A stretch of 64,000 nucleotides of DNA from Lingula anatina. Lineage: Eukaryota; Animalia; Brachiopoda. Each line of letters opens with the position of its first letter. Position 1 is the first letter of the stretch. The stretch lies in NCBI GenBank assembly GCA_051362555.1, contig CM120645.1, positions 18,786,001-18,850,000 on the forward strand, read 5' to 3'. Positions 20,701 to 62,700 of the stretch are shown in pieces. Below the pieces are notes generated by a model. The model saw only the letters and a program-made list of their open reading frames with translations. It was not told where the DNA came from and made no database searches. Made by a program: the position numbers and the translations under genes.

Positions 20701-23700
20701 CAAACACCCCACCCCCCTCTCCGCGCCAACAATTCCCTAAACTTACTTAGCATCGGGGTCATACTCTGACCATAGCTGTACAAAGTCAACTAAATGGTGC
20801 GGCCCAAGGATTGACCAATCTCGTGTCAAGTAATCAAAGTTGTCCATAATTACCGCCACAAACAAGTTCAATATCTGTAGGGAGAGAAATTGGTGAATAA
20901 AGCCAACCACACTAAAACAGAACAAAACGTACAATACAACACTGTGGTGATCCAGTTGAGGCTGGGCTCTAGTCTACTACGCACTACGTAGCAACGGGTC
21001 TGGCGTCAGCGCGTCACTGGGTCTGGCTGGCAGAGAAACACTAGAGAATCGCACACAAGAGGGAAGGAAGCACTAGTCATGGCCTTGACCTTGACCTAGT
21101 TGTCTGCATACACAGAGGGAGGGGTAAAGCTCCAGTCTAACATGGGGACAGTTTGTGGCAATATGAAGTTGCAAGTGTATACATGAAGTGAGCCACGGAG
21201 CATGTTAATAGCAATAAGGTTTGGTTGGTTGGTTGGTTAAAAGTTTGAGATTGTCACCTGTTTTAGAACTGGCATAGCAAGAAGCAAAGATTTTTATAGC
21301 CATGACCAGAACAGTTTAAACAACAGGCCAAATATAATAGGTGGGTGGGGGTGGGGGTGGGGGGTGGGGGGGGGGGGGGAGGAGTCAGAAGTTTGCATTT
21401 TCTCAGTGTCTTCCTCCGCTGCCTGCCCCAGCATCTCACTTCCCGCCAGACCAGCCAGCTCTTGAATTCATCCACTTACTTTGCATCAGGGTCATACTCA
21501 GACCACAAGCGAACAAACTCGTCTAAATGATGCGGCCCAAGGATGGACCAATCCCGAGTCAGGTAATCAAAGTTGTCCATGATAACAGCCACAAAGAGGT
21601 TAATGATCTATGAGAAAAACGAGCCAGGAAAGAAAAAGAAAAAACAGCAACTGTTTAAACAATTTGCAATCATTCACCTGCAGTGATTAATAGGCATTAG
21701 CAAGCATTAATTGTTAAAATATAAGCTGCACTGTTAAGCAGGCATGTCAAACAATAAGCAAGGCTCAAACTAGCATATAAATCAAGCATTTTGCCAAATG
21801 CCTCCCTTGGCAATAATAAACTATTAACTCTTAAATATCTTCTATCATTTTTGGTTTAATGATAATCTACAACTAGTACACGAAATACTATCATCTTGTA
21901 AGTTCAAAGAGTTGTTTGGCAAAAAAAAAAAATGTATGTTAGATAGAGCCAAGCTAGTCTTCTTTTTCAGGTGTATCAACACGAGAAAAACTTTGGGAAA
22001 AAAGCTAACTGATTTCCATTACAAAAATGATCAATAATTTGTGAACATTTTGTAGAAGCAACTGTATGAGGAAGAAAATCAGATCTCAGAGGAAGCCAGA
22101 GAGCCAATCAGTTAGAACTTGGAAATGAAACACTTCATGGGTACTTTCATTTGTTTTCAATATTTCTATTTTCCTTTCAAACTGGAATGCCTGTTCTCAT
22201 TTTCATAAGATTTGTAATTTTTCCATAGGCATTCAAGTAGCTATCAATGCTAAAAACTTACTTTTTTACTAAAATTAAAATGGCATCTTAAAAAAGTCCT
22301 AAAAATACATTTACTCAGAGAGCTTAAAGTGAGCCACTAAAATGTCGAGAATTGTTGTAAAGACCCCTAAACAAATTATATTTTTCTGTTATCTGTTCCA
22401 TGAATTGTTTCCTTATAAAAGTTAATAAAATAAGTTAATAATAATGATGAAAGTTAAAGAAGCAAATTATCTTAGTTATAAGTGAATTGAAAAGCAGTAA
22501 ATAATAATATCAATGGACAGAAAATTGTGAAGATATTAAGGTAGTATGGTTATTTAAAAAGAAAATTTCAAATATAGTTCTTCGGTTACAGTTCAATTGA
22601 AAGAAATTTTATCAAATGAATTGATAGAATCAGTGGATATTAAAATAATTGTAATGAAATGAAAGAAATGAACTGCTAATGACAGAGTAAACTTTTTACT
22701 GAAAACAGTAATGGAATGAATTATGTAAACAAATGGCTCTTTCTTAAAATCTGAGATCCCTTATCAGATTGATTAAATCAATGAAAAGAAGAGAAATAAA
22801 TTTGAATTGTTTTACAATACAAAAAGAATAATTTAAATGCAAACAACAAACTCATAGCAGTGCTTTAAAAGTGATTAAAACATATTTTCAATATGTAAAT
22901 TCATGAAAGTGGCACAAAAAATTACATAAATGACAGTAACTATTTTACAATCAAATATTCAATAAAGCAAGGTTTCAAATAGTTTGTAAAACATAGCATG
23001 ACATTCATGCCCACTTGACATTCATTTATGCTCAGCTGAAACATCAATTCATACTGTAAAATCATTTCAGCCAATCACAAGCTTTTCTCACATTTTCCCA
23101 GCATGCAATTCACTTCACGTCAGTGCTACAAGCTCAAATATTACAAGCTCTATGCAGGAACAATAAAAACATTCCCAGGGCAAATATGATAAATTCAAGG
23201 AGGGAAGTAAGATGTGCAACCATTTATTGAAACATTCCAAAAGGAAAAGGGAATTTTTCAAAATTGTAGATGAAATCAAACAATATTTACCTGTATTTTG
23301 TGATAATTTTGAGACATGAATTTTGAAAATGTTCATTCCCAGTAGGCAATGAACGAAAAATTAATTGAATTTTTGCTGAACTGATGGATGTGATCAAAAT
23401 ATTCCACCTCTTTCCCCCACTGAATAATACCCACAACTGAAACATGAAGTGAACGCAAAATTAAGTCAAGTTCTGGTATTCTTCAGTGGGAAAAATCAGC
23501 TGGTTCTGCTTCCTAAAGACGAGCAAATGATGTGAGTTTGCTTCTCAGTTTGAATATATATATATATATATGGGAGAATAAATAGTGTACAGAACTTTCA
23601 TATTTTCAATATTATTTTTCCAGTGTGCATTTTTTGTTTGTTTATTTGCTTTTCAACTACATCTGAATCATATTCTTATATTAGACTGAAACTCTATTGA

Positions 23701-59700: not shown

Positions 59701-62700
59701 ATAGGAAAATTGTTCAAATTTCTAAGAAATAATAATTATAATTTTGCTATATAAAAGTCTTAAACACATGGTATGTTTTTAAACAAAGGATGCTGAACCA
59801 TGCAAAAGTATGGTCTTGTATTCCAGAAGCTTCAAACTTGACTGCTAGTTCATGAATCATTCATAGAAAATTTGATGTATTTTAGAAGAGGCACAAACTA
59901 GGAACTGTTGGTAGCTATATCATTCTCGTAACTTCACATAAGAAAAATTCAAAGATAGTCCTTGTAAACTGGACTCGAGTTGTCAATGCAAGCAGGGGTG
60001 AAAAGCTTTCTGCCGTCAAACCCAGAGCAATACAAACACTTAAAAACACATGCAGTCTAAAATAATTACTAAATTACATATTTCAATTTTGTAAAAAATA
60101 TACACAACCTGTTTGAAATGACGCTAATGAATACTTTCAATTTTTTTAATCTTTTAGGCTTTACAATCACAACATGAAATTATGGTTCCAAGCCATTAAT
60201 TTGGCAATTGAAGTCAGTGATTTGCGGCTCCTAGAAGGGTCAACCCATTTAAAATATGAATGCACCTTATGACAGGACAAAAATTGGGAACTATTAAACT
60301 GACATTTATTATGAAAAATCACGTGAAATATTTAAGACCCATGACTTTAAACAACGAAATAGGGTTGCCAGCACTTTAGTTGCTGTACTCATAATATGTA
60401 GATTAAGATGTTATTACCAACAGACTAACATCTTAATCTAATGGGAAATGAACCCATATAACATCCAATATGCAAGACTGCACCGAGCAATAATGATCAT
60501 TCACAGGTTTTTTATCTTTACTGGGGTTCTGAGACCAGTTCCACAAAAGAGCTCTAGTTCGACTTTTTAGACCAAAACATAATTAATTTTTTAAAACCAA
60601 TACCTGATGCACATGGACTACTACTAACATGAGGCTAATATTTATGGTCTAAAAGTTTAGACCAATTTTTGGGTCTAAAGTTCTTTTGTGAAAACAAGCC
60701 CCAGGCCCTGGGGTAACTTACTTGATTCCTCTCGGAGTCTGCATTCAAGGGATCTTCTGCTGCCAACATAGCACTACTTATTAGAATACATGCGAGTACA
60801 ATATTGGTGAAATAGGAATGATTGCACACCTGGTGGCAGAAGATTCTTATTCTGGAAGCAAAAAGATGTCACATTCCAAAAAGCCTGATTAAAGCAGCTA
60901 AAGTCAACAAAACAACATCACCCTGTTGCACAGAGGAGCACTATGAATTCACGCTCAGACTGCTTTCTTAAACCTAAACAGGTCTGTGTCTAAAACATGT
61001 CATCACAGACTCAGCAAAATTTATTTAGGAATGCTATTAGGCTCCCAGGTTTAGGGAGACCTAGCTGCTCAAAAAATAAAACATATTAAAAGAAACTCAA
61101 TTGTTTTTCAAACATTTGTCCAAAATGTGACATGTTTTAGAACCACAACTGTTCAAGTTTAACAAAATAATTTTTGAAAAAACATCCGAACACAATAAAA
61201 GTTAATAAAACCACCACAAGTCAGGAGCTGGCATCACAACTCATAAGAATCTGAGCAACAAACTGCCCAGAAGTGGAGACAAAAATAGGGGTGGGGGGGC
61301 TGGTTTGTAGCAGACAGACAGGCAGGCAGCACATTAGCTCACTCCACGGCAGCTCGGCACTGGGCCAACTCTGTGTGCAGTCACGCTACTCACTTGGTTG
61401 CGCTTTGAATTTTGGTTCACGGGGTCCTCACAGGCCAGAGCAATGCTACTGGCCAGAATACAGAACAGAATACTGTTGGAGAACCAGGAGTGGTTACAAA
61501 TCTTGTGGCAGATTATTCTCAACCTAGAGATAAAGGTGAGCAACTGTCTTCATCTTGGTCTATTTACAGGATGGATATACCCTTTCCAGGGGATTATATC
61601 ATTCAAATTTTGTGGCTTACAACTTTCAATCCAGACAAAAAGGTTTTGAGTTTGAGGATCAAACCCTTTCTTGTTCCACTTAAAAATGGTCACCCTGCCA
61701 ACATGTCTTTCATTAATATCAAAACATTGAGACTAATTCATCTCCAAGTCAAGACAAAAAACTGATGCCTTAAACGTGTGCCCCTATTCTCAAACACTGC
61801 TCTGATAGGACAAACAGGAACTGGAAATGGGAGCTATATTTATTACTGTGGTGTAACTTTTTCTTATTTTTGCTTCAGTGATAATGGGTAATCTTCTTGA
61901 ATCAAATACCCCCTCCCCCCAAAAAAATACTACTATAGCAACTGCATTTAATCTCCCATATTTTAATACCAATTACAATTATTCATTCATTTCCTATCAA
62001 GCATGTATCTTGCAAAAATTTCTTGACCTAATTTCTTGAGGTCTTTGTTATATTCTGAAATAAACATTCCTTAGAGCAACAACAATTTACTGGACCAGAA
62101 ACATATAACCTGTGTTAGGTAATTAACAATGAGAATATCTCCAAATACAAGCAGAGAAGCAGAGAAAAATCCCAATCAACATTGTTTATTGGAATATTAA
62201 AATATTTACGACCAGTTTCAGATTATGTCTACAATTATTTTTAGGAACCTGGTAAAATATATATTTACAATTAACATATCCCATCTCTTTAACATAACTC
62301 ACTTGTTGGTGGGTGAAAATATGAAGAGTGAGCTGGCGTTTGGAATGGGTTTGACCTTGTCGGGGATGTGCAGTTCTGACATTCTTCTTGGTCGAGCTGT
62401 GGCATTGGAGCTATGATGTTCATCCTCCTCATCCTCGTCTACCTCATCACCACTCTCATCTGGATTCCTGTCTCCTGCTGAAACATGGGAAGTCAAAGCA
62501 TAGGGCAGGTGACTGTGCTGCCTTAGCCCTGTCATATTCTTATAATTGGTCATTTCAGTTGGTACTTATTTATTTATTTATTCATTTATTTATTTATTTA
62601 TCTTTAGTTTAAGTTTCAATCTTTTTATTGCATACTGAGATTTATGTAGAGCATGGTATTAATACTGAGACTTAATTAGAGCATGGTTTTGGATAAATCT

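Follow-up and report, generated by a model that had tools for sequence, protein, structure and literature searches.

We report here that the 3' half of a Cav1 (L-type) calcium channel alpha-1 gene of the brachiopod Lingula anatina carries five exons in two tandem copies each. The gene lies on the minus strand of a 64,000-nucleotide (nt) stretch of DNA (assembly GCA_051362555.1, contig CM120645.1, positions 18,786,001 to 18,850,000; hereafter the window), which holds it from the II-III linker to the C-terminus. We consider it likely that the five exons were duplicated in tandem long ago, that both copies of each have been kept intact by selection and that the spliceosome picks one copy per pair in each transcript; the pairs are real and, judging from the DNA, very likely functional.

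The coding exons tile the Cav1 proteins of Lottia, Dreissena and Paralvinella in order in tblastn searches, and with these three lophotrochozoan proteins as queries exactly five of the 18 exon slots from IIIS1 (segment S1 of domain III) to the exon after the EF-hand are doubled in tandem. The sequence of repeats III-IV, the EF-hand and the IQ region is nearer to Cav1 than to Cav2 or Cav3, an IVS6 copy scores 68-71 bits on Cav1 structures and 60-63 on Cav2, and the selectivity glutamates of domain III (TFEGW, in both copies) and domain IV (TGEAW) are present, those of domains I-II lying outside the window. The features are listed below with their positions in the window; bit scores refer to a profile built from 30 reference species, which trained it, so that their own scores are inflated.

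5465..62532, minus strand: Cav1 coding exons, II-III linker to C-terminus; domains I-II outside the window
61394..61523, minus strand: IIIS1 copy A (divergent), 130 nt, 78.7 bits, above only 1 of the 30 reference species
60722..60851, minus strand: IIIS1 copy B (consensus), 130 nt, 102.8 bits
48686..48793, minus strand: IIIS5 copy A (divergent), 108 nt, 72.7 bits, below all 30 references
47436..47543, minus strand: IIIS5 copy B (consensus), 108 nt
42969..43115, minus strand: domain III turret, pore helix and filter, copy A (nearer consensus), 147 nt, net charge -6
42888..42968, minus strand: intron between the III turret copies, 81 nt, with one branch-like CTGAC at -15
42741..42887, minus strand: domain III turret, pore helix and filter, copy B (more divergent), 147 nt, with an unchanged filter glutamate and a net charge of -2
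28068..28159, minus strand: domain IV turret and P1, copy A (consensus), 92 nt, net charge -1
26485..26582, minus strand: domain IV turret and P1, copy B (divergent), 98 nt, longer by two residues and devoid of acidic ones, net charge +3
21480..21607, minus strand: second half of IVS6 and start of the EF-hand, copy A (consensus), 128 nt
20747..20874, minus strand: IVS6/EF-hand copy B, 128 nt, with I2L, D29V, E30D and R33Q; aligns to rabbit Cav1.1 1372-1413

The original prediction, made from the DNA alone, of five tandem homologous pairs with GT/AG borders, matched phases, open frames and lengths of 130/130, 108/108, 147/147, 92/98 and 128/128 nt was borne out in full. All ten copies are bordered by AG and GT and, within each pair, share the same phase and have lengths equal modulo 3, at nucleotide identities of 62% (IIIS1), 65% (IIIS5), 63% (III turret), 64% (IV turret) and 81% (IVS6). 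The up to 32 combinations that had been foreseen all translate: every one of the 32 ways to take one copy from each pair is free of stops. At IIIS1, the IV turret and IVS6 a transcript with both copies or with neither runs into a premature stop, and at IIIS5 and the III turret it remains in frame. The copies are separated by introns of 542 (IIIS1), 1142 (IIIS5), 81 (III turret), 1485 (IV turret) and 605 nt (IVS6), that of the III turret being the shortest of the 23 introns measured (next shortest, 230 nt). An assembly artefact, in which alleles or a paralogue were interleaved into one contig, can hardly be entertained on this anatomy: such errors do occur, as a spider gene model with an identical doubled IIIS1 exon illustrates, but the Lingula copies differ at 19-38% of their bases, the introns flanking them do not align with each other, only single exons are doubled and one pair sits 81 nt apart.

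Each pair had also been expected to consist of one consensus and one divergent copy, and this held for four of the five. In these four the consensus copy scores mid-range among the 30 references, and the divergent copy ranks under every one of them at IIIS5, the IV turret and IVS6 and under all but one at IIIS1; at the III turret, by contrast, both copies fall below every reference (86 and 71 bits against a minimum of 93). Among homologues, IIIS1-B is a better match than IIIS1-A for 147 of 149 long sequences, and IIIS5-B a better match than IIIS5-A for all 149.

Divergence between the copies has been concentrated in silent positions. The synonymous difference (pS) is near saturation, at 0.83 for IIIS1, 0.91 for IIIS5, 0.74 for the III turret, 0.83 for the IV turret and 0.63 for IVS6, and the replacement difference (pN) is 0.26, 0.18, 0.27, 0.19 and 0.07 in the same order; pooled, pS is 0.78 against a pN of 0.19 (Fisher P 5e-36), with pN/pS between 0.10 and 0.36. 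Neutral decay was simulated with one copy neutral, its partner fixed, no indels and 20000 runs per pair. At 0.35 substitutions per site a dead copy remained intact and as similar as observed in 178, 13, 13, 124 and 0 of the 20000 runs (IIIS1, IIIS5, III turret, IV turret and IVS6), and at 0.7 substitutions per site in none of the 20000 for any pair. Since pS is near saturation, pN is low and the simulations seldom retained a dead copy, the sequences indicate that selection on the protein acted on both copies over most of their past, which does not in itself imply that both are used at present. The pairs look to be of different ages, to judge from the 81% identity of one and the 62-65% of the others.

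From this anatomy, the reading frames, the selection and the residue and charge differences we infer that the divergent copies are included and that the choice within each pair is either/or. One copy of each pair would be chosen per transcript, yielding L-type variants whose gating, and whose outer pore in domains III-IV, are predicted to vary. Because double inclusion or double skipping shifts the frame at IIIS1, the IV turret and IVS6, nonsense-mediated decay would suffice there to clear the faulty products. The two in-frame pairs would need another device, putatively the tight 81-nt intron at the III turret and regulated competition between splice sites at IIIS5. Such a division is known from Caenorhabditis elegans, where 14 of 19 mutually exclusive clusters with exon lengths not divisible by three (non-3n) rely on decay and five of five clusters with too short an intron are 3n (PMC4165533); the in-frame III turret pair with its shortest intron fits the latter pattern. 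The divergent copies are probably minor, cell-type-restricted choices under partly independent regulation.

Candidate signals for the choice are leads only. The 70 nt downstream of the first copy have a high GC content in four of the five pairs (0.53-0.63, compared with 0.30 on average after 13 constitutive exons; post hoc P 0.004), and these stretches can be located as follows.

61317-61387, 48609-48679, 27991-28061 and 21403-21473, minus strand: GC-rich stretches 3' of the first-copy donor in a window of 35% GC; candidate splicing elements

One of 14 RNA duplex tests, on an element of the IVS6 intron, stood above shuffled sequences (1 of 60 shuffles) and is likewise a possible splicing element; the other 13 were at the level of the shuffles, and the fold of the whole IVS6 intron was no better than them (z -0.85). 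Lists of inverted repeats around the five pairs held nothing specific, no shared TGCATG (Rbfox-type) site marking the divergent copies was found, the motif lying within 400 nt of only one of the five, and the sequence of the IIIS5 pair displayed no feature that would enforce exclusivity.

Several observations weigh against a living either/or choice in all five pairs. A profile-free search with IIIS1-A among 1.84 billion representatives gave a best relative of only 68% identity among the 150 listed hits; 32 of these 150 scored higher on IIIS1-A than on IIIS1-B, and the 13 inspected in full appeared to be ordinary single Cav1 copies or fragments, or lacked context. The metagenome loci, which are the best 80 of 400 confirmed stretches with the IVS6 pair as query, were single-copy wherever both neighbouring exons and the flanking introns were included (IVS6 7 of 7, IV turret 17 of 17, III turret 6 of 6, IIIS5 1 of 1), and neither these nor the homologue searches yielded a relative carrying any divergent copy. 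In insects, RefSeq models frequently contain the two IIIS5 copies in tandem (3 of 6 in Periplaneta, 6 of 13 in Venturia and 4 of 7 in Cryptotermes), and strict exclusivity at IIIS5 is therefore not guaranteed. The branch-like motif of the 81-nt intron, a predicted branch point only, lies about 66 nt from the donor; splicing is blocked when the two are closer than some 50 nt, so that at this distance it would not be hindered, and a steric block at the III turret is only putative. Finally, pN/pS is an average over both lineages and is compatible with a recent loss of use.

Two further explanations are to be considered in this light. One or more of the divergent copies could be recently silenced relics that are no longer spliced in, which would agree with the failure to find their homologues in other animals and with the weak polypyrimidine tract of IIIS5-A (47% pyrimidine); nevertheless, the consensus copy of the IV turret has a similarly weak tract (53%), all ten copies have kept AG/GT, length and frame, and long-term neutrality is rejected by the simulations, and we regard this as improbable. 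Alternatively, the extra copies could be cassette or 'poison' exons, added to the normal copy to down-regulate the channel by frameshift and decay or by misfolding. Double inclusion does create stops in three of the five pairs and is annotated for IIIS5 in insects, but such a function demands no conservation of amino acids, and replacements have been strongly held down, nowhere more so than at IVS6, where double inclusion shifts the frame (pN 0.07 against pS 0.63); this idea seems to us about as improbable as that of silenced relics.

If one copy of each pair is chosen, as we favour, the copies are predicted to alter the gating and the outer pore of domains III-IV and not the filter glutamates. 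From copy A to copy B the III turret exon moves from a net charge of -6 to one of -2, within the reference range of -8 to -1, and the IV turret exon from -1 to +3, just outside the range of -2 to +2 of the 30 references; both divergent turrets are thus shifted by +4. A selectivity switch by a turret or filter exon, of the type of NALCN 15a/b and Cav3 12a/b, was ruled out: the TFEGW motif with its glutamate is identical in both III copies and neither turret pair differs in cysteines, so that only net charge distinguishes the copies. In IIIS5, the site aligned to Gln939 of rabbit Cav1.1, which we take to be the same position as Gln1070 of rat Cav1.2, is Thr in copy A and Asn in copy B, Asn being found also in the Cav1 of Lymnaea. 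The rat glutamine is important for dihydropyridine binding (PMC6796685). Dihydropyridines bind the III-IV fenestration and calciseptine touches extracellular loops of repeats III and IV (PMC10761187), and therefore four of the five pairs touch that module. At IVS6, any special significance of the Ile-to-Leu replacement is weakened, since Leu stands in the sole IVS6 copy seen in 18 of the 80 metagenome loci, a set in which the query favoured such loci, and one of the 18 also has the downstream D-F-V-Q pattern. Of the four replacements in IVS6-B only Asp-to-Val, before the EF-hand helix, is without a counterpart: 470 long Cav1 proteins, a set that includes many isoforms of the same genes, gave 460 motif matches, and none has it.

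The original prediction went further and proposed that the five divergent copies are chosen together and form a second, tissue-specific L-type channel. This would be a special case of the one-per-pair choice, and we think it unlikely. Four pairs out of five fall within the pore module of III-IV and both turrets shift in parallel by +4, which speaks in its favour, as do the vertebrate Cav1 exon trio, which 'may work in concert' given that at all three events CACNA1F and CACNA1S have retained different exons (PMC9741552), and the amphioxus Branchiostoma, in which the IVS1 and IVS3 versions occur together in 43 of 43 predicted isoforms, though the two may have been duplicated as a single unit. 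Against it, two of the pairs have their divergent copy upstream and the other three have it downstream, TGCATG does not recur near the divergent copies, as noted above, the pairs appear to differ in age, and the nemertean Lineus alternates at the III turret, IVS1 and IV P2 (P0142, P0310-P0323) with 6 of the 8 possible combinations annotated, weak evidence in that these are predicted models. It is correspondingly doubtful, and if anything a shade more so, that the linked divergent set amounts to a second channel in which the outer vestibule of III-IV is markedly less acidic (+8 in net charge), the III-IV drug fenestration is reshaped and the IVS6/EF-hand gate is changed. Were it true, the gene would hold a 'paralogue inside a gene' that alters conductance, inactivation or sensitivity to pore-shoulder peptide toxins and that uses two sites, IIIS1 and IVS6/EF-hand, for which we found no precedent in any Cav1; linked copies would also offer an unusually clean case of coordinated splicing over some 40 kilobases.

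The choice of one copy per pair can also be viewed against other phyla. Quick trees placed the gene among lophotrochozoans, nearest to Tubulanus (82% identity) and outside the supported mollusc and annelid clades, and approximately unbiased tests of its grouping with molluscs, annelids and nemerteans rejected none of the three (p 0.47, 0.26 and 0.36), on a tree without further brachiopod, phoronid or bryozoan members. Predicted isoform sets were compared exon by exon, with at most 15 listed members per cluster (for oysters, 15 of 126). For three of the five sites, isoforms predicted by RefSeq in other phyla show either/or alternatives: the III turret in Lineus (2 versus 11 of 13 isoforms), IIIS5 in nine insect isoform sets, with a Trichonephila model that has a tandem pair there, and the IV turret in 1 of 15 isoforms of Ptychodera and in 3 of 11 of one Branchiostoma set. 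Branchiostoma (P0367-P0379, P0441-P0468) alternates at IIIS2, at the exon before the III turret, at IVS1 with IVS3 and at the IV turret, which makes four or five alternative units over this stretch. No IIIS5 alternative occurred in a damselfly set of 12 isoforms, none of the isoform sets compared had one at IIIS1 or IVS6, and 24 mollusc sets of at least two isoforms each had no substituted exon at any of the five sites, in annotation that overlooks rarely used exons; in Biomphalaria, a one-residue IIIS1 difference and a IV turret garbled in 8 of 11 models were not counted as substitutions.

These foreign alternatives do not match the divergent Lingula copies, which favours independent duplications. 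Of 48 residues, the two III turret copies have 32 in common, among them a WVNNPL motif specific to the lineage, as against 24-28 in common with either Lineus version, and an independent origin at this site is favoured because the copies in the window are closer to each other than to the Lineus versions; IIIS5-A shares 23-26 of 36 residues with insect versions against 26 of 36 with its own partner. The duplications are thus probably lineage-specific and convergent with same-site duplications in other phyla. The metagenome loci, none of which showed a duplicate of IVS6, contain other tandem Cav1 duplicates, of IVS3 (contigs L025, L027, L028 and L029), of IVS4, of the EF-hand exon and of the exon that follows it (L025, L027-L029, L031 and L032). 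The IVS4 (voltage sensor) pair stands on an invertebrate Cav1 contig (L051:7166-7290 and L051:7700-7821), and its upstream copy has AG/GT ends, a strongly divergent S4 helix and 70% identity to the window exon over the match. The EF-hand pair (L049:564-951) presumably resembles the vertebrate Cav2 exon 37a/b in position.

In vertebrates the IIIS2 pair is formed by exons 21/22 and the IVS3 pair by exons 31/32. Both exons had been called single in the Lingula gene, and one tblastn hit each confirms this.

58988..59047, minus strand: IIIS2 exon, 60 nt, single copy
34153..34236, minus strand: IVS3 exon, 84 nt, single copy

Tandem-duplicated exon events number three in CACNA1C, three in CACNA1D, two in Ca-alpha1D and three in cacophony, and the human and fly Cav genes together document at least ten independent origins, the ten events reported falling on ten different exons (PMC9741552). 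With CACNA1C, CACNA1D and Ca-alpha1D the Lingula gene shares membership of the Cav1 family and homologous exon pairs of matched length that code for membrane segments; it differs from the former two in having five pairs in domains III-IV alone, with IIIS2 and IVS3 single, and for Ca-alpha1D the exons concerned are not named in PMC9741552. Drosophila cacophony, with its IS4A/B and I-IIA/B exons, is likewise a single invertebrate Cav gene diversified by exon pairs, but it is a Cav2 with pairs in domain I and proven effects on activation voltage and synaptic function (PMC11828482), whereas the Lingula gene is a Cav1 with pairs in III-IV, described here from its sequence. Alternative exons over the pore turret or filter of a four-domain channel are also known from invertebrate Cav3 (12a/12b) and NALCN (15a/b and 31a/b), where selectivity is changed through cysteine patterns or an E/K swap in the filter (PMC4436565), unlike in Lingula, where both III copies keep TFEGW and the turret cysteines are unchanged. 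Finally, Lineus, insects, Ptychodera and Branchiostoma share three of the five slots, amphioxus being similarly dense in alternatives, and differ in the alternative sequences themselves, which are database predictions for which no published account was found.

The five pairs are therefore an exon-rich instance of a well-known and repeatedly evolved device. The suggestion that the set is undescribed stands in so far as no paper on it was found among open-licence PMC papers and bioRxiv, the passages of PMC3634016 and PMC10761118 contain no description of these exons, and no precedent was found for the IIIS1 and IVS6/EF-hand pairs; tandem exon substitution in Cav genes, on the other hand, is already documented (PMC9741552). 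The novelty lies in the lineage and in this specific combination of pairs, in two sites at which we met no precedent, and in a charge shift that runs in parallel in the two turrets. The copies are real, selected and interchangeable in appearance; the proposal that exon duplication takes the place of paralogues is not original, exclusive exons standing in for missing paralogues being a stated hypothesis for cacophony (PMC11828482). Our findings extend convergent Cav exon duplication, at a high pair count, to a poorly sampled lophotrochozoan lineage. The apparently independent duplication of the IIIS5, III turret and IV turret slots in at least three phyla points to positions where an L-type channel gains from alternatives, and the pairs provide natural chimeras, already filtered by selection, in which the tuning of L-type channels by turret charge, by the glutamine position of IIIS5 and by the entry helix of the EF-hand can be studied.

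Elsewhere in the window, positions 63279-63368 (minus strand) match the II-III linker of a chiton Cav1 weakly (53%, 37.7 bits) and are probably a further linker exon near the window edge. An intronic repeat family with units of about 160 and of 410-430 nt, 75-94% alike, occurs in tandem and dispersed at 35236-38013, 43267-45145 and 49855-50099, and a minisatellite with an 11/33-nt period lies in the intron preceding the IIIS6 exon (40111-40618). The intron after the IV turret pair contains an inverted repeat (25518-25776) with 110-nt arms, 90% complementary and 39 nt apart, which looks like a miniature inverted-repeat transposable element.

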